The notes: generated by a model from the sequence alone, not told the origin. Counted from the stretch's first letter, positions 64-62,023 are shown. The stretch is 64,000 nt of DNA from an uncultured Bacilli bacterium (GCA_934096295.1 CAKOLL010000005.1:16761-80760); one strand, 5' to 3'. Translations and numbers: made by a program.

Positions 64-1563
64 TTATATCAATTCCTCTAACTTTTTACGATCAATTTTT
101 CCATTCTTAGATAAAGGCATTTCTTCTACTTTAATAAATTTACTAGGTATCATAAATACTGGTAACTCTTTTGTTAACTTTTCATGTAATTCTTTTGGTT
201 CCATATCCCCGATATAAAAAGCATATAATTTACTTTTTTCTTCTCTAAATATAGAACATACTCGTTCCACACCATCAAAAGAACCAATTGCTTTATCTAT
301 TTCTTCAAGTTCTATTCTATGTCCCATATATTTAATTTGAAAATCTTTTCTACCCCCAAAATACAATTCATTATTTTGATAATATCCTAAATCTCCAGTT
401 CTATAAATATATTCAATATATTTATCATTTAATGGATTTCTAACAAAAGCTTTTTCAGTTTGTTCTTTATTTTTATAATATCCCAAAGCTAAAGCTGTTC
501 CTCTAACACAAATTTCACCTTTTTCTGATTCTTTAGTTACTAATTCATTTTTATCATTTAATAAAAACACAGCTTCATTATTAAAAGGAATTCCCACTGG
601 TATTTTTTCATATTCTCTATTTCTATCAATTATATGATAAGTACAATTACAAGTAATTTCTGTTGGTCCATATAAATTTACAAACATTGCCTTTGGTAGA
701 TGTTCCATCCATGATTTTAAATGTTTCATTGGCATAACCTCACCACTAAACATTACTCTTTTAACAGTTGTTGGAACTTTATAATCAAGGCCATGGAATG
801 TAGAAATTAAACATAAAGCTGATACTGCCCATGTCATTGTTGTAACCTTATGGGCCACTAAAAAATCAATTAATAGAGCGGGTTTAGAAAATAATTCTTT
901 TGGCACAATAACAAGGGTTGCACCAGTCTTTAAAGCCGGATAAATATCTTTTACAGATACATCAAAATCAAATGGAGCTTGATTAGCTATAACATCATCA
1001 TCATTTATTCCAAAAGTATCAACAAAATTATCTACAAAATCAATTATTGAACGATTTCCAACAATAACTCCCTTAGGTACACCAGTTGAACCACTTGTAA
1101 AATTAGCATATACTGGATCTAAATCTACCTTTTTCTTTCTTATTTCGCTTAACAATTCCTCATTAATTTCTTCATTAATTAAATCTTCATATAATATAAG
1201 TTTTTTATCTGGAAAAAACACTTTAGCATCTTCTAAATGTTCACTATCTGTAACAATATAATCTACATCTAAAACACTAATAATTTGTTCAAGTCTCATC
1301 TTAGGTAAACCTACATTAAGTAAACTATAAAATCCTCCGGCATATAAAGCTCCCATAAAAACTTCCAAAGCACTAATACCTTTTTCCATATAAACTGGAA
1401 CTGGATCATTATTCTTAACAAATTTACCTAATCCACTCCCTATTTTCTTACTTATCTTTAAAAGACATTGATAATTAATACTACCATTTTTATCAATCAC
1501 TAAATTATTTGTTTTAACATTTTCTAAATATTCCAATACATTCTTCATAATCAACCTCATCAT
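64..1563 (-). CDS. DltA-family adenylation enzyme (D-alanine--D-alanyl carrier protein ligase homolog)
   Basis: Carries the AMP-binding motifs FTSGSTGVPKG, NQAPFDFDVSVKDIYPAL, YRTGDLGYY...GRKDFQIKYMGHRIELEEI and C-terminal MIPSKF...NGKIDRKKL. These are colinear with B. subtilis DltA, but no dltBCD lie downstream. Confidence 0.7.
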   Translation of the reverse strand: MMRLIMKNVLEYLENVKTNNLVIDKNGSINYQCLLKISKKIGSGLGKFVKNNDPVPVYMEKGISALEVFMGALYAGGFYSLLNVGLPKMRLEQIISVLDVDYIVTDSEHLEDAKVFFPDKKLILYEDLINEEINEELLSEIRKKKVDLDPVYANFTSGSTGVPKGVIVGNRSIIDFVDNFVDTFGINDDDVIANQAPFDFDVSVKDIYPALKTGATLVIVPKELFSKPALLIDFLVAHKVTTMTWAVSALCLISTFHGLDYKVPTTVKRVMFSGEVMPMKHLKSWMEHLPKAMFVNLYGPTEITCNCTYHIIDRNREYEKIPVGIPFNNEAVFLLNDKNELVTKESEKGEICVRGTALALGYYKNKEQTEKAFVRNPLNDKYIEYIYRTGDLGYYQNNELYFGGRKDFQIKYMGHRIELEEIDKAIGSFDGVERVCSIFREEKSKLYAFYIGDMEPKELHEKLTKELPVFMIPSKFIKVEEMPLSKNGKIDRKKLEELI

Positions 1564-10241: not shown

Positions 10242-11354
10242 CTATGTTGTTTGCTTACTTGATGCTAAAGTAACATTAAGTTCTTTAGTTTTACCATCTC
10301 TTATTACTGTAATCTTAATTGTATCACCAACTTTACATTGATATAAATAATATCTTAAATATGCAATATTTTTAACTTCTTTACCATCAATTTTAGTAAT
10401 AATATCATTAGCTTCAATTTTACCTTTAGCTGCTGGACTACCTTTTTCAACACTATTTACAATAACACCACTTGTTACACCAGAAGATTGAATTAAAGCT
10501 CCATATTGATAAGAATTATAATATTTATTTACATCATACATTGATACTCCAATATATGGATATTCTGTAGATTCACCTTTAATAATTTGTTCTGCTTTAG
10601 ATGTAGCATCTTCAATTGGAATTGCAAAACCCATTCCTTCAACACCACTACTTACAAGTTTAAGGGATGTAATACCTATTACTTCTCCATTACTATTACA
10701 TAAAGGTCCACCACTATTACCAGAGTTAATCGCCGCATCGGTTTGTAAAACCTTCATTATATAATCATTATTTCTTGAATTATTTAAAGAAACTTCTACT
10801 AATCTATCCTTACCAGATAAAATTCCTCTCGTAACTGTCCATGAATAAGCACTATCTAAAGGTGCTCCAACAGCAAATGTAGTATCACCTACTCTAGAAT
10901 TATCATTTTTACCTAAAGATGCTACAGTTAAATCATCTTTTGATTCAATTGATAATACTGCAATATCAGCATATTGATCAGAACCGACAACTGTAGTTTC
11001 TAGAACTTTTTCATCAGTAAATGTAACTGTAACTTTATTACCACCATCAATAACATGATGATTTGTTAAAATATAATACTTGTTTCCATCTTTTTTATAG
11101 ACAAAACCAGTTCCAGACGCAATATAAGTTTGATCTTTATATGTTGATACAATAACAACTGCATTATAAACTTTATCAACTGCATCAGCAATACCAGTAT
11201 CTGTAACAGTTACATCCTTTTCTAACTTAGTTACTGATTCTGTAATACTTGTTGGAAAGAAATATACAACTGCATACATTGCTAAACATCCTATAAAAAA
11301 TACTATTAAATAATTTACCCAACTTTTTCTTTGTTTAATTTGTTCTTCATTCAT
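10242..11354 (-). CDS. htrA: HtrA/DegP-family trypsin-like serine protease with C-terminal PDZ domain
   Basis: Catalytic GNSGGPL, His in NHHVI, an N-terminal TM anchor and a PDZ region. Confidence 0.85.
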   Translation of the reverse strand: MNEEQIKQRKSWVNYLIVFFIGCLAMYAVVYFFPTSITESVTKLEKDVTVTDTGIADAVDKVYNAVVIVSTYKDQTYIASGTGFVYKKDGNKYYILTNHHVIDGGNKVTVTFTDEKVLETTVVGSDQYADIAVLSIESKDDLTVASLGKNDNSRVGDTTFAVGAPLDSAYSWTVTRGILSGKDRLVEVSLNNSRNNDYIMKVLQTDAAINSGNSGGPLCNSNGEVIGITSLKLVSSGVEGMGFAIPIEDATSKAEQIIKGESTEYPYIGVSMYDVNKYYNSYQYGALIQSSGVTSGVIVNSVEKGSPAAKGKIEANDIITKIDGKEVKNIAYLRYYLYQCKVGDTIKITVIRDGKTKELNVTLASSKQTT

Positions 11355-12286
11355 TTTTCTAGCCTCACTATTTCTTTATAATTATTTGGGAATCCCATTT
11401 CATGTAATACTTTTTCTATTTTAATTACCTTAAGTTTGCCCGCTAATCTATCTAATTCATAACTTATTTCACTAATAAATAAATTAAAATTATCTTCATC
11501 CAGTAATTGTTTTAAAATAATTATTAATGCAAACAAATCATTCTTTCCATATATATATTCCTCACTTATCTTAGGAATATACAATAATCTATGATATTTT
11601 GTATCATCAATAGCTTTTTGAGTCCGATTAATATAACAAATATCTTCATGAGCACACAAATTTCTATAATTAGCAACAATCGGTAAATAATCAACCATAC
11701 TATCAATACTAACTTCAAAAACATCAGCAATTTCTTTTTGATCTTGGTACTGAAGAATCGTATAAAGTTCACCAACTATTCCAAATGATAAAACCTTCAC
11801 AACAACCCAAAGAGGAATATAACCATAATTTATGATGTAATGTGCTGTTGCAGTATGTTGTTTACCATTAACACTTATCTGTCTTTTCATCTTTCTAATT
11901 AAATCATTAATTTGTCTATTTCTTCTTGAATCTTTAACAAAGTTATTTGGATTTAAATAATTATTTTCTTTAAATCCATGATTCTTACTCATTACATAAG
12001 CTAATATACTTTTTAAGTTATTTTCTACAATTAAAATATTTTTAAAAAGTATATTTCTTATTTGTCTATCAAAAAGAAACATCGAATATAATTCATTAAA
12101 AGTAGTACCTTCAAGATAAGTCTTATTATCGTCTGGTCTCATAAATAAATGACGGTAACCACTTAAGAAAAAGTAGTTTTCACGTAACAAAACAGTTTTA
12201 GCAATTTCAATATCTTCAACTACTAAACCTTTTTTTGTAAGTATGTCAATTTGTTCATCTAATGTTTTAAATGTTTTTGCTTTCAC
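11351..12286 (-). CDS. Abi_2-family abortive-infection protein (AbiD/AbiF-like)
   Basis: N-terminus MKAKTFKTLDEQIDILTKKGLVVEDIEIAKTVLLRENYFFLSGYRHLF matches the conserved Abi_2 N-terminal signature. Length is 311 aa, and the start overlaps the htrA stop (ATGA). Confidence 0.6.
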   Translation of the reverse strand: MKAKTFKTLDEQIDILTKKGLVVEDIEIAKTVLLRENYFFLSGYRHLFMRPDDNKTYLEGTTFNELYSMFLFDRQIRNILFKNILIVENNLKSILAYVMSKNHGFKENNYLNPNNFVKDSRRNRQINDLIRKMKRQISVNGKQHTATAHYIINYGYIPLWVVVKVLSFGIVGELYTILQYQDQKEIADVFEVSIDSMVDYLPIVANYRNLCAHEDICYINRTQKAIDDTKYHRLLYIPKISEEYIYGKNDLFALIIILKQLLDEDNFNLFISEISYELDRLAGKLKVIKIEKVLHEMGFPNNYKEIVRLEK

Positions 12287-13374: not shown

Positions 13375-14211
13375 TTATTTAGTTGTCTTATCATATTCAT
13401 CCATAAAACTTTTATAAACCCCATTCTTTTTAGTACCTAACACACAATTTAGATTAATGTTATCTAAAGATTTAAATATATTATAATCAATATCAGGATT
13501 TAATTCCCGCAAATGTTTTATCAACTCTTTCATTTCTTTTCTTTTACTTACAGATTCATCACTATTACTTACTTTTTCAGTAAACTTACATGCACAATTA
13601 ATAAATTCTAAATTATTATACTTTGCCCAAGAGATGATACTATATTCTTTTACTAAATAAAGTGGTCTAATAAGTTCTAGATTTTCAAAATTTTCACTAT
13701 GAAGCTTTGGCAACATTGTTTTAACCTCACTACCATAAAACATAGAAAGTAATGTTGTTTCTATTACATCATCAAAATGATGTCCCAAAGCTATTTTATT
13801 ACATCCTAACTCTTTAGCTTTATTATATAAATGTCCCCTTCTCATGCGAGCACACATATAACATGGGCTCTTCTCATTTAAACTATTAGCAACATCAAAT
13901 ATATCACTATCAAACATTTCTAAGTTAATGTTTAAAATTTCAGCATTCTCTAGTATCTTTTCTTTATTAACTTCATTATAACCAGGATTCATACATACAT
14001 AATATGCCTCAAATGGAATACCACCATGTTTTTGTAATTCTTGGATACACTTAGCTAATAAAAAAGAATCTTTACCTCCAGAAATACAAACCATAACCTT
14101 ATCATTTTCGTTAATAAGTCTATAATCTTTAACAGCCTTAACAAACTTAGCCCATATTTCTTTTCTATACTTTTTTATGATACTTCTTTCTATTTCCTTA
14201 TATCTTTCCAT
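13375..14211 (-). CDS. ttcA: PP-loop ATPase, tRNA 2-thiocytidine synthetase TtcA family
   Basis: PP-loop CISGGKDS plus Cys motifs CYMCARMRRG and CACKF. Confidence 0.7.
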   Translation of the reverse strand: MERYKEIERSIIKKYRKEIWAKFVKAVKDYRLINENDKVMVCISGGKDSFLLAKCIQELQKHGGIPFEAYYVCMNPGYNEVNKEKILENAEILNINLEMFDSDIFDVANSLNEKSPCYMCARMRRGHLYNKAKELGCNKIALGHHFDDVIETTLLSMFYGSEVKTMLPKLHSENFENLELIRPLYLVKEYSIISWAKYNNLEFINCACKFTEKVSNSDESVSKRKEMKELIKHLRELNPDIDYNIFKSLDNINLNCVLGTKKNGVYKSFMDEYDKTTK

Positions 14212-14983
14212 TTCTTACCTCACCCAAATACTTTTTTACATACTTATAATAACACTCTATCTTATCTTTAAACATTAATTTGTTATATATCTCATCAACT
14301 ATATTCTCTTTTTCTATATATTCTAAAGTCCATTTATAATTCATATCAAATACAAATGCTAACTTTAATAATATCTTATCCGAAAACGTCTTCACTTTTG
14401 TATGATCTATACTTTCATCTCTTAAAAATTCATTTTTTACATCAAGAGTTATTTCACTATCATCTTCATCTAAAACAATATCTCCATTTTTTACCATATA
14501 CATTATATCTGCTTTATCAGCATCTCGTAGAATATTAGACATTATTAAATCAACATCTTTCGTATCATTAGAAATTTTATATTGATTATGATTTTTTATA
14601 GCAATATAAATTGTATCATTCCACTTATGATTAATATTAAAATCATTAATTTTTTTATCTTCAAATAAAATTTTTAAGCCTAATAAAGCATGGTCTTCAC
14701 CTTTTAAATCATCAAATGTATGATATTTTTGCCATTGTATAAAACGCCCTATATCATGCACTAATCCTATAAATTCTGCTAAGTCAATTAATTCATCAGA
14801 AAGATCTAAGCTTTCAGCAATAGACTTACATAAACAACTAACTCTGATTGAATGACTTATTTTTCTTTTAATTTCTTTTTCTTCTGTATTAAATAAACTT
14901 GCATATTCTAAAAATATTTTTTCATTATTCAACAATATCACTTCCAAAAAGATTCCATGGATATTCATCCCAATATGGATCAC
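14198..14983 (-). CDS. HD-domain phosphohydrolase
   Basis: H...HDIGR motif. Confidence 0.55.
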   Translation of the reverse strand: MIHIGMNIHGIFLEVILLNNEKIFLEYASLFNTEEKEIKRKISHSIRVSCLCKSIAESLDLSDELIDLAEFIGLVHDIGRFIQWQKYHTFDDLKGEDHALLGLKILFEDKKINDFNINHKWNDTIYIAIKNHNQYKISNDTKDVDLIMSNILRDADKADIMYMVKNGDIVLDEDDSEITLDVKNEFLRDESIDHTKVKTFSDKILLKLAFVFDMNYKWTLEYIEKENIVDEIYNKLMFKDKIECYYKYVKKYLGEVRNGKI

Positions 14984-16452: not shown

Positions 16453-16539
16453 GTTTTTACCTCGCTAGAAATATTTTACTAAATATTTAATCATATTTCA
16501 ATTAAAATACAGAAAAATCCAAGACATTTATCTTGAATT

Positions 16540-18534
16540 TTATTTATAACAATATCTATTATTATATTTAGAAAATCCCCGTGGACACGAATATGTTGTT
16601 GAGCAATCATTATAACACCCACCACCAGTAGTAACACATCTTGATGCCGTTTTATCTATATTTGGAAAACGAGAAGGACAAGTTTTATAATAATAATCAT
16701 AACAAGTTTTCCAAGTAGGTTCATAAACGCCGTATTTACAGCTTTTACTTGCTATTTCCGATGAAGAAGCATTATAATAACACACTAAATCACATGTTTC
16801 TGTTGCTGGAGTACATACCTCTTGACAACTTTCATCCTCATCAGTTGTTGTTATTGTTATTTTACAACTGCCAGTATTCCCTGCCGCATCTTTAACATAT
16901 CCATAATATGTTCCAGTACTTATTGATAATGTTTGATTTGTATAACTTTCTGTGGTACTTGATGATATGCCAGAATTTGATACATCACTATCTTTACTAC
17001 CAAAAACAATCTTGGACCCACTTAAGGATAAACTACATTTTGGTACAGTTTTATCAATTTTTAATGTTTTGCCCACGGACGAACCACTACATTTTGATTC
17101 ATAACAAGCTCTTACATATATAATATTATTTATATCTTTTTCATATACAAAATTTACACTATTTCCATTTATTATTTGAGCTGATAATACAATCCAGCTT
17201 CCATTACCAATTTTATATTGGAATTGTGTTACTAAATCATTTGCTGAACCAGGGGTTATTTCAATATATATAGATTTATTTGTCCACACCCCATTATATA
17301 TTTCTCCATTACTATTTTCATATTTAGTTTCAATTAATGGTGTTGATGGCACTCTAGGAACAACCTTTAATTTAGTTGATGCATTTGCTGTTTTACCATT
17401 GCCTCCGACTGCTGTACATGTTAAAGTATATTCACCAACAGTTAAATCTCCAGTTTTCTCATAATTACAAGATAATGTTCCCCCGCTTTTTGAATACTTA
17501 ACATCAAAATATGATGACACAACATAATTTTCATTAACAAAGATTTGATTTTCAGCATTTTTTGCCTTAATCCTTGGACCATCTTCATCTATTTTATCAA
17601 CTTTTATAATTTTCTCTTCACTAATATTTCCTACAACATCTTTTACACAAACTTTGTATGTTCCAGTTTTATTAACAACCACATTTTTACTACTATCAAA
17701 TTTATCACAAGAAAGATTAGACTCCACTACAGAATAACCATTTATACCAGATCCCATTCCATCACTTGCTATTATTTCAATATTTTTTTCATAAGACCAA
17801 TTAGTATCAACTTTTATTTCATTTATAACAGGGGCTTCCATATCAATTTGAATATTTCTTGATGCAATTCCGTTTGTATTATCTTTAGTTATTTCACATT
17901 TATAATTTACATTTCCCACAAGTTCAATATTAGTTTTTACAACATTTTCATTACTTGAAAATCCCGTATTTGTTGACCAATTATATTTTATATCTTCACC
18001 AGTTAACAATTGACCTTCATATGATATACCTAAAGTAATATTTTCATTTATCCATTTATTTTCAAGCGCAACACATTTATTATCAACAACTTTACATATA
18101 TCATAAAGTGTTTTTCTCTCATATTTTTTACATACCCCATTTTCTCTTCCAAGATTTTCACCCAATTCTGATGTATAAACTCCATCTTTATATTCCGATT
18201 TTATTAAATAACAATTCATACTCGTTTTATCTCTCGGATTATATATATCAGTTTCATCATCGGGCTTTACATAACCTTCTTTTATTAAATCCTCAACACT
18301 TATCGTGGTAACACCTGTTTTTTCAGCATATTCACTAGCTTTTGTTTCTAAATAAAAAACTAAATTATTATATTCTTTTTCTAAAACACTTTTTCTAACA
18401 TTTATAAAAATAACTACAGACAAGGTTACTAAAATAGAAAGAATAACAACTACAGCAATCAATTCTGTTAATGAAAAAGCTTTCTTTCCTAATTTAAAAA
18501 TTGTTTTTTTATTTTTAGTGATTAATTTTTTCAT
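16540..18534 (-). CDS. large pilin-like protein 1 (664 aa): type IV prepilin-like N-terminus, Ig-like modules and a Cys-rich C-terminal tail
   Basis: Basic leader followed by KAFSLTELIAVVVILSILVTL, a class III signal/prepilin motif with Glu at +5. It is paralogous to the next two genes and its tail ends SCPRGFSKYNNRYCYK. Confidence 0.6.
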   Translation of the reverse strand: MKKLITKNKKTIFKLGKKAFSLTELIAVVVILSILVTLSVVIFINVRKSVLEKEYNNLVFYLETKASEYAEKTGVTTISVEDLIKEGYVKPDDETDIYNPRDKTSMNCYLIKSEYKDGVYTSELGENLGRENGVCKKYERKTLYDICKVVDNKCVALENKWINENITLGISYEGQLLTGEDIKYNWSTNTGFSSNENVVKTNIELVGNVNYKCEITKDNTNGIASRNIQIDMEAPVINEIKVDTNWSYEKNIEIIASDGMGSGINGYSVVESNLSCDKFDSSKNVVVNKTGTYKVCVKDVVGNISEEKIIKVDKIDEDGPRIKAKNAENQIFVNENYVVSSYFDVKYSKSGGTLSCNYEKTGDLTVGEYTLTCTAVGGNGKTANASTKLKVVPRVPSTPLIETKYENSNGEIYNGVWTNKSIYIEITPGSANDLVTQFQYKIGNGSWIVLSAQIINGNSVNFVYEKDINNIIYVRACYESKCSGSSVGKTLKIDKTVPKCSLSLSGSKIVFGSKDSDVSNSGISSSTTESYTNQTLSISTGTYYGYVKDAAGNTGSCKITITTTDEDESCQEVCTPATETCDLVCYYNASSSEIASKSCKYGVYEPTWKTCYDYYYKTCPSRFPNIDKTASRCVTTGGGCYNDCSTTYSCPRGFSKYNNRYCYK

Positions 18535-18608
18535 AACATCACCTATATTAATAATAAATTAAATATTAGATTTAGTCAAATAAAATTCAAAACGCTTTAC
18601 GTTTTGAA

Positions 18609-21173
18609 TTAACTTAATTTATAACAATAACTATTGTTAAGTTTTGTATATCCACCTGAGCAATAATAAACTGTTTCGTATCCCGTATCATAACATGTTT
18701 TAGACACATAAGAACTACCTGAACAATCAGTACCTGAAGTATCTAAATAAGGGAAGTCCGAGGTACAACTTGAAGAATTTTTCCATTTCCAACATGTATC
18801 ATAAGCACCTTCTGTTGCGGCTCCACTACATTTACCATTCTTTTTTTCAGTTGATGTCATATACCTATAGCATACATATCTACAAGATTCTTCATAACTA
18901 CCACAATCATATGAATACGAATAAGGTTCCTCATATGAACTTGTATATTCTATTGAAGCACTACAACGACCAGTATTTCCAGCCGCATCCACAACATGAC
19001 CATAAAATGTTCCTGTACTCATAGAAGCAGTTGAACTTCCATAACTAGCAGTTGTCGTCTTGGAAATACCATAACTAGATACATCACTTGATTTATTGCT
19101 AAAAGACACTTGTGAACGAGTTACAGATAATTTACAAGTTGGTGCAGTTTTATCTATTTTCAAAGTTTTTCCAGCTGATGCCTCACCACAATTATTATCA
19201 TTACAAGCTCTTACATATATAGTATTATTAATTTCACTGGTATATATAAAGCTTCCATTATTTTCAGACATTGTAAGTGAAGAAATATTTGTCCAAGCAC
19301 CATTTCCAATTTTATATTGATATTTCGATACTACGTCTTTTGTTGTTCCTGCTGTTATTCCTATATAGATAGATTTATTAGTCCAAGTACCATTATAATC
19401 ATTACCATTTGCATTTTCATATTTTGTAATAATTGTTGGAGCGGAAGGTATTTGTGGAACTATTTTTAATGTTGTCGATGCACTTGCTGTTAATCCATTT
19501 CCTCCAGTTGCTATACAACTAACAGTATAAGTACCTAATGCAAGACCAGAAGTATCTGCTGGGTTACAACTAACACTACCGCCACTTTTTGAATATGTTA
19601 CTGTAAAGAATGATGATGTATCTTGTAATATTTCTATTTGAACATTATTTGAACTATTTTTAGCTTTAATTACTGGACTTATTTTATCTATCCTTAAAGT
19701 TTTTCCAGCTGATGCTTCTCCACAGCCTTTTTCATTACATCCTCTTACATATATGATTCCATCTATTTCTGAACTATAAACAAAGTTTCCTTGATTACCA
19801 TTTAAGCTTAAATTATTAGGTTTAGTCCACGTTTTATTATCTAAACTATATTCATAACGTTCTATTAAATCTACACTTCTTCCAGGTGTTATACTTATAT
19901 AAATAGATTTTGATGTCCAGGTACCATTATAATCAGCACCGTTTGCATTTTCAAGTTTAGTTGTGAGAACAGGTGCAGCTGGAATATCAGGAATTACACT
20001 TAACTTAGTTGAAGCTGTTGCTGTTAATCCATTTCCTCCGACTACAGTACACTCTAATGTATAATCACCAATTGCTAAATTTCCTGTTCTTTTATAATTA
20101 CAAGTTACTGTACCACCACTTTTAGCAGGATATGTAACAGTAAAATATGTAGAAGCAACTTCATTATCAGTACCTACAATTATTTCATTTTCAGCATTTT
20201 TAGCTACAATTGACGGTGCTTCCTTATCAATCTTATCTACTTCTATTGTTTTTTCTACACTAACATTTCCAACTTTATCTTTTACACAAACTTTATATGT
20301 ACCATTTTCATTTACTTTTAAATTCTTATCTCCAGCATAATTTGTACATTCACTATTTACTTTAGCAATTGCATAACCACCAATACCTGACCCCATTCCA
20401 TCACTTGCTAAAACATCAATATTTTTACTTACACTCCAGTTTGTATCCATTTTTAATTCATTTATAACTGGAGATTCTTTATCAATTTGAATGTTTTTTG
20501 TTGCAACTCCATTTGCATCTTTACCATCTGCATCTTTTCTAGAAACCTCACATTTATAATTAATATTTCCAACCAACTCAACATTTGTAGTAACCATATT
20601 TTCATTACTTGTAAATCCTGTATTAGTTGACCAATTATATTCTATATTATCTCCAACTAATAATTCATTATTATATGCTACACCTAAAGTAATATTATCA
20701 TTTATCCAATTACTATTAATACTTACACATTTATTATTAATAACTTTACAAATATCATAAAGTGTAGTTCTATTATATTTATTACATTTTCCTTCGGTTT
20801 GTCCTAAATTACTACTTAATTTAGCAATATATTCTCCATTTTTATATTCCATCTTTAGTATATAACAATTCATACTTGAGTTATCTCTCGGATCATATAT
20901 ATCAGTTTCATCATCAGGTTTTATAAAACCCTCTTCAATTAAATCTTCTACACTTATTGTTGTTACACTAGTTTTATTGGCAAATTCAACAGCTCTGGTT
21001 TCTAAATAAACAACCAAATTATCATATTCTTTTTTTAATACATTCTTTCTTACATTGACAAATATAGCTACAGTAGCAGTAATTACTAAAGATAAAACAA
21101 CAATCACAGCTATTAACTCTGTTAAAGTAAACGCTCTATTATTTAATACTTTAACTTTATTATTAGATTTCAT
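18609..21173 (-). CDS. large pilin-like protein 2 (854 aa) with an internal duplication of a roughly 180-aa Ig-like module
   Basis: NRAFTLTELIAVIVVLSLVITATVAIF prepilin-like N-terminus. The module TC..GGNGLTA.AST.L.V.P..P.AP...TK.ENANG.DYNGTWT.KSIYI.IT...CGEASAGKTL.IDK is present twice. Tail ends ...NNSYCYKLS. Confidence 0.6.
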   Translation of the reverse strand: MKSNNKVKVLNNRAFTLTELIAVIVVLSLVITATVAIFVNVRKNVLKKEYDNLVVYLETRAVEFANKTSVTTISVEDLIEEGFIKPDDETDIYDPRDNSSMNCYILKMEYKNGEYIAKLSSNLGQTEGKCNKYNRTTLYDICKVINNKCVSINSNWINDNITLGVAYNNELLVGDNIEYNWSTNTGFTSNENMVTTNVELVGNINYKCEVSRKDADGKDANGVATKNIQIDKESPVINELKMDTNWSVSKNIDVLASDGMGSGIGGYAIAKVNSECTNYAGDKNLKVNENGTYKVCVKDKVGNVSVEKTIEVDKIDKEAPSIVAKNAENEIIVGTDNEVASTYFTVTYPAKSGGTVTCNYKRTGNLAIGDYTLECTVVGGNGLTATASTKLSVIPDIPAAPVLTTKLENANGADYNGTWTSKSIYISITPGRSVDLIERYEYSLDNKTWTKPNNLSLNGNQGNFVYSSEIDGIIYVRGCNEKGCGEASAGKTLRIDKISPVIKAKNSSNNVQIEILQDTSSFFTVTYSKSGGSVSCNPADTSGLALGTYTVSCIATGGNGLTASASTTLKIVPQIPSAPTIITKYENANGNDYNGTWTNKSIYIGITAGTTKDVVSKYQYKIGNGAWTNISSLTMSENNGSFIYTSEINNTIYVRACNDNNCGEASAGKTLKIDKTAPTCKLSVTRSQVSFSNKSSDVSSYGISKTTTASYGSSTASMSTGTFYGHVVDAAGNTGRCSASIEYTSSYEEPYSYSYDCGSYEESCRYVCYRYMTSTEKKNGKCSGAATEGAYDTCWKWKNSSSCTSDFPYLDTSGTDCSGSSYVSKTCYDTGYETVYYCSGGYTKLNNSYCYKLS

Positions 21174-21251
21174 TTACTATTCACCTATCATAATAATAAT
21201 TTAAAAATAAATTAATGTCAATAAAAAGAAGCGAGTTACCTCGCTAACATT

Positions 21252-23957
21252 TTATTTATAACAATATGAACTTCCAACTCTTGAATATCCAAATGGACAA
21301 CTATAACCACCAACAGCACAAGTTACATTAGTTTTATTTTTCTGATTTGTTTGTGAATTTTTATAGCTTCCCGAACAACTTGAGTACTCTGAACTTGGTG
21401 TACAACTCGCTAATCCCGATTTCGTAGAACTTGATGGACTATACTCATAATAGTAATCTGGAACTGTACTAGATACTGAACAACTAACTTTTGTTTCTTG
21501 ATAATTAGAACTAGTACACTCAAACGGATTATCTATACAACTAGTTTGATTATATTCATTACTTCCAGAGTCAAAAGAATAAGAATAAGTTGGGGTCTTT
21601 ATAACTTTACCTGTTGATTTTTTACACTTACTTTGATTACACCAAGAACAAGTTGACCAACCCGAAGCACAAGTATCAGCAGATCGAGAACATGTATATT
21701 TTGCATCAGATGTTTTGGTTGAAGACCAACCTGATGAACAACTAGTCTGATTTGTTAAAGTACATTTTCCACCGCTTAACGAACCAGATGCACAATAATT
21801 ATATTTACCCAAACAAGCACTAGATACTTGAGACCATGAACAACCACTGGTCCGTGTACATTTTGAATAAGAATTAGAAAATTCTGTACACATTTTTTGT
21901 GTAGGATTTTTAGTACATTTATATCTAGCATACGATGTTCGGGTTGAACTCCACCCACTTGAACATGATGTTTGATTATTTATATAACAACTTCCATTAC
22001 TATATGTTCCTGATGAACAACCATTATAGCTACTACCTGAAGTATAGATATAACAATAATCTCCAGTATTTGGATATGTTCCTGATGAACAACTTATAGA
22101 TGTTCCTGATTCAGTTCTATCACAATAATATGATGTTTTTGTATAATATTTTATCGGATGATTAACATAACTTTCAGAACATGTTGTAGTAGTTTGATTA
22201 TAATATAATGTTCCATTTAATACCTCAGAACTACACATTCCAGTATTTCCTGCTCTATCATAAACATGACCATAAAAGGTTCCAACACTCAAACTTTTAC
22301 TTGAATTTGTATATTCTGGATTAGCACTATTATTAACTCCAGATTTTGAAACATCACTAGATTTAGATCCTATAGAAATTCCACTGGCTGTCACTGATAA
22401 AGAACAAACTGGTGAAGTTGTATCTATTTTTATAACTTTTCCATTTGATGCAGAACTGCACTTATCACCATTACATGCTCTAACATATATTGTGTTTTCA
22501 ACTTCTTTTGTATATATAAAGCTTCCATTTGCACCATCTCTTTTTAGATTATCAGGAGTTTGCCAACTTCCAGTTCCTATTTTAAATTGATATGTTCCTA
22601 CAAAATCATTTTCTTTAGTTGGTGTTATACTAACATATACTGATTTATTAGTCCATGTTCCACTATATAAATCTCCATCAGCATTTTCATATCTTGTTTC
22701 TATTACTGGTGTAGATGGTGTATATGCTAAAACATTTAAATTAGTTGATGCACTCGCAGTTAATCCATTTCCTCCGGTTGCTGTACATGTTAGAACATAA
22801 TCACCCGGAGTTAATCCATTCGTAGTTTCATAATTACACTTTGTTGTTCCACCACTTGTTGAATATTTAACTATAAAATATTCATCTTTAACAACTTTAT
22901 TTATACCCATATAAATTTGATTTTGTTCATTCATGGCTCTAATTTCTGGAGGATTTTTATCAATTGTATCCACCTTTGTTTCAAATTTTTGACTTACATT
23001 TCCAGCTTTATCTATTACACAAACATTATAAGTCCCATTAGAGTCAACTTTAACTTTTTTATTATTTTCAAACTCAGCATCCATACAATCAGTTTTAGAA
23101 TCTACTACAGCATAACCACCTATTCCTGAGCCCATTCCATCATTGGCTATGATTTCTAATTCTTTACTAGTGCTCCAATTAGTATCCATCTTAACTTCAG
23201 TTATAACCGGAGCCTCCATATCTATTTTAATAATTTTGGTAGCAACCCCATTTTTATCATTACCATCTTCATCTTTTCTAAATACTTCACATTTATAATT
23301 AATATTTCCAACTAACTTTACATCAGTTTCAACAGTTTCTTCATTACTTGTAAATCCTGTATTTGTTGACCAATTATATTCAACATCTCCAGTAATTAAG
23401 TTATCATCAAAAGAAACTCCTAAAGTAATGTTTTTGTTTAGCCACTCATCTCCAATAGCTTCACATTTTCCATTAACTATTTTACAAATATTGTATCTTG
23501 TGTTTCTATCATATTTACTACATTTTCCATCTGCATCTTTCAAATTTTCACTTAACTTTGCAATATATTCTCCATCCTTATATTCTAATTTTATCAAATA
23601 ACAATTCATACTTGAATTATCTCTCGGGTCATATATATCTGACTCATCATCTGGCTTTATATATCCTTCTTTTATTAAGTCTTCTACGCTTATCGTAGTT
23701 ACTCCAGTTTTATTGGCAAATTCAACTGCTCTAGTTTCTAAGTAAACCACAAGATTATTATATTCTTTTTCCAATACATTTTTCTTTATATTTATAAATA
23801 CTGCTACAGTAGCTGTTATTAACAATGACAAAACAACTATAACAGCTATTAACTCTGTTAATGTAAAAGCTCTATTATTTAATTTTCTTTTTTTATTTTT
23901 AGACTTTATCATAATATCACCTATCATAATAATATTAAAAATTTCGTAACTAGTCAA
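21252..23957 (-). CDS. large pilin-like protein 3 (901 aa as listed; probable true start at 23912, MIKSKNKK..., preceded by AGGTGA)
   Basis: NRAFTLTELIAVIVVLSLLITATVAVF N-terminus. The first 330 aa or so are highly similar to protein 2. It has a very long S/T/C/Y-rich tail ending SCPFGYSRVGSSYCYK. Confidence 0.6.
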   Translation of the reverse strand: MTSYEIFNIIMIGDIMIKSKNKKRKLNNRAFTLTELIAVIVVLSLLITATVAVFINIKKNVLEKEYNNLVVYLETRAVEFANKTGVTTISVEDLIKEGYIKPDDESDIYDPRDNSSMNCYLIKLEYKDGEYIAKLSENLKDADGKCSKYDRNTRYNICKIVNGKCEAIGDEWLNKNITLGVSFDDNLITGDVEYNWSTNTGFTSNEETVETDVKLVGNINYKCEVFRKDEDGNDKNGVATKIIKIDMEAPVITEVKMDTNWSTSKELEIIANDGMGSGIGGYAVVDSKTDCMDAEFENNKKVKVDSNGTYNVCVIDKAGNVSQKFETKVDTIDKNPPEIRAMNEQNQIYMGINKVVKDEYFIVKYSTSGGTTKCNYETTNGLTPGDYVLTCTATGGNGLTASASTNLNVLAYTPSTPVIETRYENADGDLYSGTWTNKSVYVSITPTKENDFVGTYQFKIGTGSWQTPDNLKRDGANGSFIYTKEVENTIYVRACNGDKCSSASNGKVIKIDTTSPVCSLSVTASGISIGSKSSDVSKSGVNNSANPEYTNSSKSLSVGTFYGHVYDRAGNTGMCSSEVLNGTLYYNQTTTTCSESYVNHPIKYYTKTSYYCDRTESGTSISCSSGTYPNTGDYCYIYTSGSSYNGCSSGTYSNGSCYINNQTSCSSGWSSTRTSYARYKCTKNPTQKMCTEFSNSYSKCTRTSGCSWSQVSSACLGKYNYCASGSLSGGKCTLTNQTSCSSGWSSTKTSDAKYTCSRSADTCASGWSTCSWCNQSKCKKSTGKVIKTPTYSYSFDSGSNEYNQTSCIDNPFECTSSNYQETKVSCSVSSTVPDYYYEYSPSSSTKSGLASCTPSSEYSSCSGSYKNSQTNQKNKTNVTCAVGGYSCPFGYSRVGSSYCYK

Positions 23958-25026: not shown

Positions 25027-25547
25027 TTACATTTTTCTTCTTTTTAAAGAAAAATCATCACTACATATTAACTCATCATCATCTATTTTGCAACTTTTAG
25101 CATAATATATAAGATTTATTAATTCTTGAAATATAGCTTTTTTACCAGCAAATGATTTATACCAAGAATCAATATCTGTAATTCCATCTTTTGCACCAAA
25201 ATACTGAACTATTGAATCATTATCTAATAAACTTAAATAATGCATTAATAACATTGTACATCTTCTTGTATGAAAATCAGATGTTACTACTGTAAATGTT
25301 GTATTTTTAGAATCTTTTAACATTTTCAATGTATTAGTAACGTTTTCTACAGTATTTCTTGATTGGTCTTCTAATAAAACATCTTTAATACTTCATCTAC
25401 TCTTTTGTACATTGAAACGCCAACAAAGACTAAACCAATATTTCTTTGAACAATAGTTTCGGGTTGTTTTGCAAAAATTATTTTTTCTTTAGTATCTTTA
25501 TCAAATCTAATTGCTTCTAGATACTTTGTTTCAGTTAGTTTTTCCAT
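25027..25547 (-). pseudogene. frameshifted DUF218 (YdcF/SanA/ElyC-like) gene
   Basis: One frame reads MEKLTETKYLEAIRF...VDEVLKMFY then stops. A different frame continues ...DVLLEDQSRNTVENV...TFTVVTSDFHTRRC. The S-x-x-ENx and VTSxFHxxR motifs are DUF218 hallmarks. An intact RBS (GAGGAG) sits at the first ATG, and the only long ORF (25027..25329) covers just the C-terminal third. Confidence 0.45.
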
Positions 25548-25565
25548 AATCTCCTCATTATAATA

Positions 25566-26150
25566 TTATTGTTTTCTAGTTCTTTGAAACTCAAATAATT
25601 CTTGTTTTTCTTCAACCTGATTTATCCTTGCATTAATTTCTTTCATTTCATAAAATTTTTCAACAAATCCTAGGAAACCATACGCTCCGGTTAAAGTTAA
25701 CAAATTTGGTACCAAATCCACATTTAAATATGATAAATAACATGCCGATATAATTGACATAACTCCTATAGCACAATTAACAATAAATCTACTATTATTT
25801 TCTTTGTTCAACTTGGACAATTCTTGCTTTTTATTTTCAAGAATTCTTATAAATTCACTTTCTGCTACCTCATCCAATTTCAATTCAGTTTCTAGCCTAT
25901 CAATTTCCATTAAGCCTCGATGCTTACTGATAATTGTTCTTATAAAACATGCTACTCCTGTGATTGGCAATATCGAAAAAAGTGGATGCATATTAGTCTT
26001 AGCTGATTCATTTAAAATTACTGCTAAATAGCATATACTCTTATATGTAGCTTCATCCCAAAAACCAGGCAAATTATCTTTTAATTCTTCTATTTTTTTA
26101 ATCCTATATTCTTTTGGTGTTTTAACATTATTCATATTTTCCATTTTCAT
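25566..26150 (-). CDS. hypothetical membrane/coiled-coil protein (194 aa)
   Basis: TM segments plus a coiled-coil; I recognise no family. Confidence 0.35.
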   Translation of the reverse strand: MKMENMNNVKTPKEYRIKKIEELKDNLPGFWDEATYKSICYLAVILNESAKTNMHPLFSILPITGVACFIRTIISKHRGLMEIDRLETELKLDEVAESEFIRILENKKQELSKLNKENNSRFIVNCAIGVMSIISACYLSYLNVDLVPNLLTLTGAYGFLGFVEKFYEMKEINARINQVEEKQELFEFQRTRKQ

Positions 26151-26169
26151 TTCCCCCTAAACTATTTAA

Positions 26170-26463
26170 TTACATATCTTTAATAATCCCTGCAACCTTT
26201 TTTAATGCTTGTAATTTTACTTTTTCCAATTTTATTTCATCAAGAACTTCTCTTAAAACCAGTTCTCCATCTCTAGTAAAATTCTCAAGAAGTTTAAAAT
26301 TACTTGGATTATCTACTTCAACTAATGAAACGTAATCTGTATTATCAACATTAATTACATCTAAAACTATATATCTTTTATCGTCATCCAAAGTAACAAT
26401 ATTAGATATATCTAATCTTTTTGCATCCATAATCTCCCCCCATTTGTTAAAATAATTATACAC
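26170..26463 (-). CDS. small acidic hypothetical protein (97 aa), possibly DUF1292-like
   Basis: Size and acidic composition only. Confidence 0.3.
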   Translation of the reverse strand: MYNYFNKWGEIMDAKRLDISNIVTLDDDKRYIVLDVINVDNTDYVSLVEVDNPSNFKLLENFTRDGELVLREVLDEIKLEKVKLQALKKVAGIIKDM

Positions 26464-46089: not shown

Positions 46090-47304
46090 CTATTTTGCAA
46101 CATTTATCACTGAAGAAATAGGAATAATATAATTTTTTTCATCTAATTTTAATAAATTATCATATAAACAAATAATTCCTCCCGTTGAAACTTCTTTTTT
46201 GCTATTTTCTAGATACTTAAAACTTGAAACCATAGCACGATTAGGAGATGCTGTTTTTTTAATTTCAAATGGATATAATTTATTATTTTTATATATAACT
46301 AAATCTATTTCATGTTTTTCTTTATCTCTATAGTAAGAAAGATTAGGCTTTAATCCTCTAGCATTATAAGATTTTATTATTTCTGAAATAACAAAATTTT
46401 CTAAATAATGTCCTGAATTAGAGCTTAGTTGTAAATCTCTTTCTGTTTCCCATCCAGCCAAATATGCAGCAAGTCCAGTATCCATAAAATAAATTTTAGG
46501 AATATGAGTCATACGTTTTAACTGTGATGACATATAAGGTTCAAGTAAATAAACTATTCCTGAAGAAACTAAAACCGATAACCATGCTATTACTGTTGGT
46601 ACACTTACTCCACAATCTTTAGATAAATCAGAATAATTTAACTGCTCTCCTACTCTAGATGCAATACTAACCATAAACTTTTTAAATTCTTCAATTTTTC
46701 CAACTTCTATTAATTGTCTAACATCCCTATTAATATAAGTATCAATATAACTTTGAAAATAAAGATTTCTATCAATTTTTGGATTATCATAAAATTCAGG
46801 CATACCACCTTTAAATATTATTTCGAATAAAGCATTTACTTCAATTTTAGGAGCTTCACATAATTTTTCGGGATTAAATAATTCTTTTTTTTCATTTCTT
46901 ACAATTTCAGAATATGTAAAACTATTCAAATTTACTATACCAACTCGACCAGCTAAAGACTCAGATGCCTTTTCCATTAAATTAAATTGTTGTGAACCAG
47001 TTATCCAATATTGGCCTTTTTCTTTTGTATTATCAACATTAATTTTGATATATGAAAAAAGATCTGGTGCATATTGGGCTTCATCAATAAATAAAGGTGC
47101 TGGATGTTCTTCTAAAAATAACTTTGGGTCATTTTGTGCTTGTTCCCTCAAAACCTTATCGTCTAAAGTTATATAATTCATATTTTCAGGTTTTAAACTT
47201 TTTAATAAAGTAGTTTTACCTGTTTGTCTAGGACCAGTAACTAACAAAACTCTAAACGTTTCACTTACATGTTTAATCATCTCAGTGGCTTCTCTGTTAT
47301 ACAT
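46090..47304 (-). CDS. AAA-family ATPase (AAA_14 + DUF4143 architecture)
   Basis: Walker A GPRQTGKTT, and the C-terminal half is characteristic of DUF4143 ATPases. Confidence 0.7.
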   Translation of the reverse strand: MYNREATEMIKHVSETFRVLLVTGPRQTGKTTLLKSLKPENMNYITLDDKVLREQAQNDPKLFLEEHPAPLFIDEAQYAPDLFSYIKINVDNTKEKGQYWITGSQQFNLMEKASESLAGRVGIVNLNSFTYSEIVRNEKKELFNPEKLCEAPKIEVNALFEIIFKGGMPEFYDNPKIDRNLYFQSYIDTYINRDVRQLIEVGKIEEFKKFMVSIASRVGEQLNYSDLSKDCGVSVPTVIAWLSVLVSSGIVYLLEPYMSSQLKRMTHIPKIYFMDTGLAAYLAGWETERDLQLSSNSGHYLENFVISEIIKSYNARGLKPNLSYYRDKEKHEIDLVIYKNNKLYPFEIKKTASPNRAMVSSFKYLENSKKEVSTGGIICLYDNLLKLDEKNYIIPISSVINVAK

Positions 47305-50254: not shown

Positions 50255-50257
50255 AAA

Positions 50258-50490
50258 CTAAGGACGAGTATAACCCGCGGTACCACCTTAATTCATGATT
50301 TATCATGCAACTTAAAATTTATAACGTAATTACCCGATTTTAACTCCAGAGCCATGTTCGCATATCTTCGTTTTTTCTTTTCCACCAACCAAGAAATCTC
50401 TATGAAACTAGGATATCTACTCTTTCCTTCTTCGTTAAACTAAACATAGTTTACCATACATTTTATGTAAATGCAATTTTTTTAATAATT
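50258..50490 (-). promoter_or_regulatory. T-box riboswitch leader upstream of dut-metG
   Basis: Minus-strand AATTAAGGTGGTACCGCGGG matches the T-box consensus AAUUAGGGUGGNACCGCG (plus coordinates 50274-50293). It is followed by a U-run before the RBS, and upstream there is a stem I-like AGAGTAG...GGTTGGTGG region. The specifier is not resolved. Confidence 0.55.
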
Positions 50491-61738: not shown

Positions 61739-61760
61739 CATATTTTTTCCTCCAAAAAAA

Positions 61761-61837
61761 ATGTGCACACAAACATAGGCTGATGTGGCTGCTATTTTCC
61801 AATCCTGACCAAGTTACAGCATATTTGTTGCACGGTT
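61761..61837 (-). ncRNA. ffs: small (4.5S-type) signal recognition particle RNA
   Basis: Minus strand ...ACUUGGUCAGGAUUGGAAAAUAGCAGCCACAUCAG... matches the universal domain IV motif (GGUCAGG-N3-GGAA-N3-AGCAGCC). The 5' and 3' arms pair (GUGCAACAAAUAUGCUG / CAGCCUAUGUUUGUGUGCAC). A sigma-A promoter TTGACA-17-TACGAT lies upstream at about 61842-61870, and the RNA is followed by a T-run. It sits in the conserved tadA-scr-dnaX neighbourhood. Confidence 0.6.
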
Positions 61838-62023
61838 AAATCGTATCAAATAAACTAATACATGTCAATACTTTTCATAACATTTCATGATTTAAATTTC
61901 TTGTTGATAACTAATATTTTTATTTTTAACACACTCAATTTTTTAGCATATATTAGCCAAATTTTGTAACTAGTTAAAAATATAAAATTACTTTATTTAG
62001 CAATTTTTGATATTTTTCAAAAT

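Follow-up and report, generated by a model that had tools for sequence, protein, structure and literature searches.

Type IV pilins are made as prepilins with a short positively charged leader, a Phe or Met at position +1, a Glu at +5 and then about 20 hydrophobic residues, and they adopt a 'lollipop' fold in which an alpha1 helix of about 50 residues packs against an antiparallel beta-sheet head. A dedicated prepilin peptidase (Peptidase_A24) cleaves and N-methylates them behind a residue that is Gly or rarely Ala (to our knowledge only Gly and, to a lesser degree, Ala are tolerated at -1), and they are polymerised by a PilB/ComGA ATPase and a PilC/ComGB platform protein, with Glu+5 required for assembly. 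Modular pilins, a class defined on Streptococcus sanguinis PilB, which carries a vWA module, and PilC, which carries a lectin module, are an established concept that includes proven adhesins, and a database census showed them to be widespread, with more than 1200 proteins in 264 architectures and a size extreme of 860 amino acids (aa) (Raynaud et al. 2021, PMC8179133). Here we describe three consecutive open reading frames (ORFs), A, B and C, that lie in the same orientation on the minus strand of a 64,000-nucleotide stretch of DNA (the window; GCA_934096295.1, CAKOLL010000005.1:16761-80760) from an uncultured Bacilli bacterium. We judge it on balance probable that their products are modular type IV pilins that act as adhesins, each combining a pilin module with a multi-domain stalk and a disulfide-rich tip.

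A six-frame scan of the window returned exactly three prepilin-type motifs, one at the start of each gene, with a processing site that reads (K/R)A^F(S/T)LTELIAV (^, expected cleavage). The class III motif with Glu+5 that the original prediction had described is present in all three, with the correction that residue -1 is Ala and the canonical Gly is absent. All three proteins pass TIGR02532 (IV_pilin_GFxxxE; 19.1-20.0 bits against a cut-off of 16.3), and the ComGC profile (NF040999) aligns with them over 76-77 of its 84 positions at E-values of 1e-6 to 4e-5. A profile search of the PDB with the first 160 aa returned type IV pilins only, led by geopilin (2.6e-5) and followed by MshA, S. sanguinis PilE1, Thermus PilA5 and PilA. 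AlphaFold2 modelled the pilin module as a helix of 52 residues (residues 22-73) followed by a beta head, at a predicted local distance difference test (pLDDT) score of 84.7; a Foldseek comparison of this model with the PDB gave no match at E<0.5, and fold searches of the head were without significance. The predicted length of the helix and the TIGR02532 scores favour a prepilin signal and alpha1 over a plain Sec signal-anchor, as had been proposed, and support the assignment of the three N-termini as true class III (prepilin) signals followed by a long alpha1 helix.

The same N-terminal module is carried by a large family. A search with full-length B returned more than 650 relatives, nearly all from gut metagenome assemblies and none of them named in any source. 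A profile of the pilin module was then compared with 1.84 billion cluster representatives (50% identity clusters), and it matched 2917 proteins at E<=1e-3, 605 clusters at E<=1e-10 and 94 at E<=1e-30, invariably at the N-terminus (residues ~2-150). Carriers of the module are nearly always 500-1700 aa long; among the best 150 representatives the median length is 678 aa, 114 have at least 500 aa and the longest has 1727 aa. Short matches, considered as candidate free-standing small major pilins, look like truncated or frameshifted fragments. The strict motif was found in 138 of the best 150 representatives. Of these, 126 have Gly and 12 have Ala at -1, all 138 have Glu at +5, and the leader has a median length of 7 aa. 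The remaining 12 representatives are either fragments that were cut at the N-terminus or close variants (GYT, FTF/FTI), with Glu+5 kept wherever the site is present. We regard the strictness with which the motif is kept as the best indirect argument for real processing of the signal by a prepilin peptidase and for a role of alpha1 in filament-type packing. The beta head, with four invariant Cys, is likewise conserved across the 605 clusters. The family is unnamed and very large, it lies outside Pfam beyond the first 25 residues, and it routinely exceeds the catalogued size extreme.

Beyond the pilin module, the proteins continue into a long body and a Cys-rich tail. A full-length AlphaFold2 model of A, made with 34 homologues (mean pLDDT 82.9), has disordered residues 1-20, the alpha1 helix, the small beta head, five beta-sandwich domains and a beta-rich tail, and across the trio the predicted stalks hold 5-7 tandem beta-sandwich domains. 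The best PDB fold matches of the whole model are strings of Ig/FN3-like domains, among them fragments of the Aureispira GhpA grappling hook, SiiE, SbsC and a 'large adhesion protein' repeat, at a sequence identity of just 9-14%. The body of Ig-like beta modules that had been expected was thus recovered in the model, as an Ig/FN3-like beta-sandwich chain of the kind seen in adhesins. SbsC is an S-layer protein and SiiE an adhesin; the fold matches speak for a 'bead-on-a-string surface protein' and do not allow a closer assignment. In Pfam, the stalk and tails have no match even at E=10, the isolated modules and tails gave nothing in Pfam at E<0.01, and a PDB sequence search with full-length B gave no match.

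The tails of A, B and C hold 12, 10 and 28 Cys, respectively, all even numbers, and their composition is biased (Cys 8.5-11%, Ser 10-23%, Thr 10-14%, Tyr 10-16%). The Cys/Ser/Thr/Tyr-rich composition noted originally is therefore real, but the description of the tail as low-complexity does not stand, because in A it is predicted to fold (pLDDT mostly 76-92) and so is not a disordered low-complexity region. The proposed terminal motif YSCPxG(F/Y)S(K/R)x4YCYK is exact in A and C, but B reads YYCSGGYTKLNNSYCYKLS. The related ending CxxGYxK(x4)YCYK is restricted to a subgroup of about 5 of the 150 best representatives, and other family members have different endings or different modules. A search with the Cys-rich tail as query returned a single candidate and missed its own cluster, and is uninformative on how widely the tail is distributed. 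Each of the three proteins has one hydrophobic segment, with no second one and none at the C-terminus; no LPXTG-like sortase motif is present, and the proteins end in YCYK or YCYKLS.

By sequence and model, A, B and C each appear to join a Com/T4a-like pilin module to extra structural modules without a specific tie to pili, which is what defines a modular pilin. From this architecture we infer cleavage, filament incorporation and adhesion in the following way. Each gene would be transcribed from its own sigma-70-like promoter, and the class III signal sequence would direct the product into the membrane. There, a prepilin peptidase whose gene lies elsewhere would cut after Ala-1 and methylate Phe+1, and alpha1, with its invariant Glu+5, would allow a type IV filament machinery, also encoded elsewhere, to incorporate the subunit. 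Given such a bulky extension, the subunit would be a minor one, probably at the filament tip or else sparse along the filament, where the stalk would hold the Cys-rich tip tens of nanometres off the cell as an adhesin. The locus itself would be a strain-variable island at which divergent alleles are swapped between strains by homologous recombination, as expected of an exposed surface protein selected by host immunity, phage or ligand diversity.

Comparison between strains bears on this last step. Proteins flanking the trio are 82-100% identical to those of the 'Firmicutes bacterium CAG:460' scaffold FR899774.1, with a single exception described below. On the rpsI side the flanking DNA is 92-98% identical to CAG:460, on the side of the methyltransferase gene 83-89%, and collinearity ends exactly at the island borders (window 24032 and 16539), between which CAG:460 has two genes rather than three, with 67-71% nucleotide (nt) and ~50% aa identity. 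Another strain has four genes of 664, 896, 285 and 803 aa at the same site. In a comparison with a conspecific contig (L022), the flank and the 3' tail of A are 99-100% identical, but the body of A drops to 94-97%, B to 85-95% and C to 57-88%. Synonymous divergence (dS) from the conspecific strain amounts to 0.012 in the adjacent methyltransferase gene but to 0.11 in A and 0.38 in B; together with the low ratio of non-synonymous change given below, this pattern speaks for old, divergent alleles that were imported or maintained and against a gene-wide excess of amino-acid change. Mosaicism was assessed among alleles within 90% clusters: alleles of A show all four gametes in 337 of 1128 informative site pairs, 72 of the 108 variable columns among alleles of C fall in the tail, its most polymorphic segment, and allele P0291 joins a type-1 backbone to a type-2 tail cassette.

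Several observations weigh against A, B and C being pilus-borne adhesins. The Pfam N_methyl profile (PF07963) scores 17.4-20.1, slightly short of its gathering score of 21.2, and the ComGC equivalog cut-off of 75 bits is missed widely (23.8-29.2 bits); at 664-886 aa and with no comG neighbours in the window, the proteins also fall outside ComGC itself. Ala at -1 is a minority state within the family, and extensions of 500-730 aa past the pilin module are hard to place in a filament except at its tip. The gene-wide ratio of non-synonymous to synonymous divergence (dN/dS) from the conspecific strain is 0.14-0.22, which indicates no gene-wide positive selection. Furthermore, neither the window nor the ~14 kb just outside it (~10 kb at the low-coordinate end and ~4 kb at the high-coordinate end) contains a type IV pilus assembly gene, in line with the original statement that pilB, pilC, pilD and pilM are missing from the window. 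The scan was extended to 56 related loci from species-representative genomes and public genome and metagenome assemblies, covering up to 10 kb either side of a family member and ~0.7 Mb in total, and phmmer searches with PilB, PilC, PilD and PilM from a Lachnospiraceae locus found no homologue in any of them. No prepilin peptidase, assembly ATPase, platform protein or small major pilin was found in the window, the ~14 kb outside it or the 56 loci. Since none of the 56 loci carries a PilB/C/D/M homologue, being unlinked from the machinery is a trait of the whole family. (The one cluster of this kind, in locus L016, belongs to an unrelated Lachnospiraceae pilin that had been picked up by a generic motif.)

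In the main rival reading of this separation, the proteins would be anchored by their pilin module and not borne on a pilus, a possibility that we regard as unlikely although it has several points in its favour. The class III signal and alpha1, cleaved or not, would then act only as export signal and membrane anchor, and a stalk of 5-7 domains would span the Gram-positive wall and show the Cys-rich tip directly at the cell surface; some archaeal surface proteins comparably have class III signals but form no long pili. Such an arrangement fits the absence of machinery near family genes in all loci scanned, the near-restriction of the pilin module to giant proteins among the top 150 with no obvious cognate small major pilin, the approximate match between 5-7 tandem predicted domains and the thickness of the wall, the wall and teichoic-acid genes of the organism (Amidase_3, M23, and MBOAT and AMP-binding dlt-like genes), and a 285-aa protein with a plain transmembrane helix and a pilin-head-like motif that accompanies some family members. 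A mere anchor, however, would allow far more variation at the processing site than is seen: a Glu+5 kept at every readable site and a -1 residue that is only Gly or Ala are the signature of peptidase processing and filament packing, and the globular head has kept its four invariant Cys across all 605 clusters. Chance resemblance of a signal-anchor to a prepilin motif, which would make A, B and C ordinary Sec-dependent surface proteins, is exceedingly improbable, since it would leave unexplained why all three pass the TIGR02532 cut-off, why the PDB profile matches are all type IV pilins, why (G/A)F(T/S)LxE is fixed family-wide and why alpha1, at 52 residues, is much longer than a signal-anchor; the subthreshold N_methyl score and the lack of a significant fold match for the head are the observations that agree with it.

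A separate question is whether the trio varies within one genome, with A, B and C exchanging sequence at high frequency by gene conversion or through cassettes, as in Neisseria pilE/pilS. Three tandem same-strand paralogues whose N-terminal thirds are 61-69% identical, and mosaic alleles in the population, could be taken that way. We nonetheless hold programmed variation to be very unlikely. The longest exact DNA match between the paralogues is 21-26 nt, their direct repeats are 62-81% identical, and no invertons, inverted repeats flanking promoters, slippage tracts or tandem repeats were found at the locus. Every copy has its own promoter-like site, ribosome-binding site and intact ORF, which leaves no silent (promoterless) cassettes. 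Three further assemblies, all from other samples, match the 7.7 kb region at 100.000% identity, and the exact protein B is present on 18 contigs. With exact matches of at most 26 nt and four identical assemblies, there is no sign of programmed shuffling in the genome. The earlier suggestion that the tandem family is a substrate for recombinational variation thus holds between strains, where the locus is hypervariable and its alleles mosaic, but finds no support within the genome. Modular, probably tip-located type IV pilins exchanged between strains remain our preferred interpretation.

Coordinates of the genes, protein modules and gene signals are collected in Table 1.

Table 1. Features of the A, B and C locus (window positions; residue numbers refer to the respective protein; modules and gene signals are predictions)
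Feature	Coordinates	Strand	Description
Gene A	16540..18534	-	664 aa; single copy of each module; protein used for modelling
Gene B	18609..21173	-	854 aa; internal 178-aa duplication of a two-domain unit
Gene C	21252..23912	-	886 aa from ATG at 23912; protein start MIKSKNKK; longest Cys/Ser/Thr-rich tail
Pilin module of A	18055..18534	-	residues 1-160; 19-aa basic leader; A^FSLTELIAV; alpha1 helix 22-73; small beta head with 4 invariant Cys
Pilin module of B	20709..21173	-	residues 1-155; 14-aa leader; A^FTLTELIAV
Pilin module of C	23442..23912	-	residues 1-157; 15-aa leader; A^FTLTELIAV
Stalk of A	16864..18054	-	residues ~161-557; five predicted beta-sandwich domains; no Pfam match
Extra two-domain unit in B	19455..19988	-	534 nt (178 aa); about residues 396-573
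Cys-rich tail of A	16543..16863	-	residues 558-664; 12 Cys; ends YSCPRGFSKYNNRYCYK; predicted folded, beta-rich
Cys-rich tail of B	18612..18962	-	residues 738-854; 10 Cys; ends YYCSGGYTKLNNSYCYKLS
Cys/Ser/Thr-rich tail of C	21255..22232	-	residues 561-886; 28 Cys; repeated CxSGx4GxC...NQTSCSSGWSST units
Promoter-like site 5' of A	18551..18579	-	TTGACT-17-TATTAT, then TAGGTGA
Promoter-like site 5' of B	21193..21221	-	TTGACA-17-TATTAT, then TAGGTGA
Promoter-like site 5' of C	23929..23957	-	TTGACT-17-TATTAT, then TAGGTGA ribosome-binding site
Weak AT-rich hairpin 3' of A	16513..16537	-	TTCAAGA-TAAATG-TCTTGGA and T-run; read directly from the sequence; under the GC criterion of the scan
Terminator-like hairpin 3' of B	18584..18610	-	hairpin and T-run; overlaps the last bases of B
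Terminator-like hairpin 3' of C	21230..21245	-	hairpin and T-run

The three giant tandem genes are present on one strand as had been reported, except that the mechanical ORF of C, which runs from a TTG at 23957 and would encode 901 aa, is probably too long; the gene callers of public assemblies use the ATG at 23912, which is the likely start. Compared in pairs, the full-length proteins are 43-52% identical and their first ~320 aa 61-69%, in agreement with the 60-75% previously estimated for the first ~330 aa and with the divergence described beyond them. B is longer because it has a second copy of the two-domain unit, and C because its tail measures 326 aa against 107-117 aa in the others. The upstream regions share TTGAC(T/A), a 17-nt spacer, TATTAT and TAGGTGA, but with a mean column identity of 67% they are only similar, not near-identical as had been claimed. 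Likewise, a terminator hairpin of its own was found for C and for B, but A has just the weak AT-rich hairpin and T-run. Since the ORFs, motifs, identities and signals check out apart from such small corrections, the original description was essentially correct.

The trio is adjoined by rplM-rpsI (L13/S9) on one side and by a gene for an RlmI-like methyltransferase (PF10672, Methyltrans_SAM) on the other, the same flanks as first described. The window has a G+C content of ~27% and represents a housekeeping region near gyrA/dnaX/recR of a Firmicute with sporulation-associated genes (spoVG, spoVT, yabP/Q, bofA, yabG-like, gerQ-like). We assign the organism, a gut bacterium, to the genus CAG-460, which belongs to the family UBA660 of the order RF39, uncultured genome-reduced gut Bacilli (GTDB-based; PMC13155120). 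The literature found on CAG-460 and RF39 deals with taxonomy and contains no report on pili; a paper on pilins of TANB77 was discarded as a precedent, as it concerns small pilins of another order.

Two further variable sites lie close to the island. The HD-domain protein encoded at window 14198-14983 is the one flanking protein whose identity to the CAG:460 homologue is as low as 64% (dN/dS 0.31), with neighbours at 82-96%, which makes it a second fast-evolving gene near the island. Between rplM and truA (window 25027-26463) there are three to four small ORFs without a Pfam match (~100, 194 and 97 aa; gene callers list 86, 192, 58 and 98 aa), and this block is missing from the collinear CAG:460 scaffold, where L007 6669/6677 joins window 26492/25031, so that it forms a second small indel beside the pilin island.

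Some relatives have neighbours of their own. A 285-aa protein lies between giant pilin genes of the ...GYCT-ending class in three loci (L019 12706-13563, L020 2907-3764 and L021 12402-13259); it has a plain N-terminal transmembrane helix and a segment, 'VSVEALIENGY...NKCNIYVI', that resembles the pilin head, with neither a class III motif nor a Pfam match, and might represent either a decayed pilin or an accessory or partner protein. In a metagenome-assembled genome (MAG) of an uncultured Bacilli bacterium (L014 1716-4771), a gene for a membrane thioredoxin-like protein with a CSYC motif stands directly 5' of genes for three pilins of 357, 111 and 333 aa. CPSGY/PTGYY motifs similar to the tail motif of A, B and C are present in two of these pilins, and the neighbourhood suggests that such Cys-rich pilins may be connected with an extracytoplasmic disulfide system. 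Locus L008 (CAZSXH010000004.1), labelled 'uncultured Muribaculaceae bacterium', is syntenic with our Firmicute window, its proteins being mostly 55-89% identical, and is probably a mis-binned or mislabelled MAG; its one family member sits elsewhere than here, between homologues of window 32080 and 31582.

Elsewhere in the window, a dlt-like operon (window 64-1548; L058 11485-15483) encodes an AMP-binding protein, a 76-aa carrier, an MBOAT protein and a 325-aa protein, with the unusual insertion of an ornithine/diaminopimelate (Orn/DAP)-decarboxylase-like gene after the first gene; its presence shows that the cell wall of this organism bears teichoic acid. The housekeeping genes are interspersed with genes of a defence or mobile type (window 11351-12286 and 46090-47304; L058 19949-21485), which comprise those for an Abi_2 protein and an AAA_14/DUF4143 ATPase, as well as type I restriction-modification genes just past the low-coordinate end, a region that also holds a pectate-lyase-like gene and an AAA_14/DUF4143 gene and no pilus genes. 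A T-box leader (window 50257-50441, 107.5 bits) lies 5' of a class I aminoacyl-tRNA synthetase gene, a small signal recognition particle RNA was detected at window 61754-61839 (55.7 bits), and the window has no tRNA genes.

Bacteria of the RF39/UBA660 group are common in human and animal guts, have small genomes and have never been cultured, and we know of almost nothing on their attachment to, or other interaction with, the host. The family would supply them with a large, variable and exposed set of candidate adhesins, immunoglobulin A targets and phage receptors. It would also extend the idea of the modular pilin to multi-domain stalks, to modules that domain databases do not see and to sizes routinely beyond 860 aa, and offers a natural test of how large a cargo a type IV filament can carry. 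As the island lies between nearly invariant rpsI and rlmI-like genes, it could serve as a handy strain-typing marker for metagenomes. A bolder and, in our estimate, rather improbable extension is that in genome-reduced gut Bacilli (RF39 and relatives) the prepilin signal serves as a general means of displaying a huge, fast-diversifying repertoire of giant surface proteins (at least 605 clusters, up to ~1700 aa), either anchored by alpha1 or carried on a minimal Com-type filament repurposed from DNA uptake to adhesion, with the rpsI-adjacent island as the main host-facing antigen locus. The family is a solid lead for research on pili and on RF39, and would amount to a new principle only if the genome turned out to have no type IV filament genes.

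Among described systems, several share single features with A, B and C. ComGC, the major pilin of the Com pilus in Bacilli, resembles them in its host group, its leader, its alpha1 and an 'L..L...GY' segment, but it has ~100 aa and is encoded inside the comG operon, whereas A, B and C have a different, four-Cys beta head, the long C-terminal extension and no comG genes nearby. CofB/TcpB of type IVb pili, GspK of type II secretion and ComZ of Thermus also join a pilin module to beta-rich domains and are thought to be tip-located, assembly-initiating and ligand-binding; in contrast to the trio, they have 300-550 aa, are encoded in their own pilus operons in diderm hosts and lack a Cys-rich tail, and they show no sequence similarity to A, B and C. 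Bead-on-a-string adhesins (SiiE, RTX/Bap-type repeats, Aureispira GhpA) match the predicted stalk in their tandem Ig/FN3-like beta-sandwiches, at the 9-14% identity given above, but use type I, type V or other export and different anchoring, and have no prepilin N-terminus. Neisseria pilE/pilS shares multiple related pilin gene copies and mosaic population alleles with our locus, which differs in having no silent cassettes, no long identical tracts and no evidence of intragenomic conversion.

The closest relatives in kind are S. sanguinis PilB and PilC, which like A, B and C combine a class III signal, a small pilin module and C-terminal modules expected to bind ligands in a monoderm Firmicute, and whose incorporation as minor or tip subunits is only proposed for our proteins. 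They have ~450-490 aa and one recognisable extra domain, compared with 664-886 aa (up to 1727 aa in relatives), 5-7 predicted beta-sandwich domains and a Cys-rich tail here; A, B and C are moreover unlinked from a pilus operon, stand in a tandem array in a strain-variable island, carry Ala at -1 and are known from sequence alone. The size of the trio, far above the 120-200 aa of ordinary pilins as first remarked, is not unprecedented, as modular pilins are catalogued up to 860 aa (PMC8179133). That census counted proteins with a second InterPro domain, and because no Pfam family matches the extra modules of A, B and C, a domain-database census would overlook them. As a kind, the modular pilin has been described before, and the large, unnamed, machinery-unlinked family in a strain-variable tandem array is a new variant of it.

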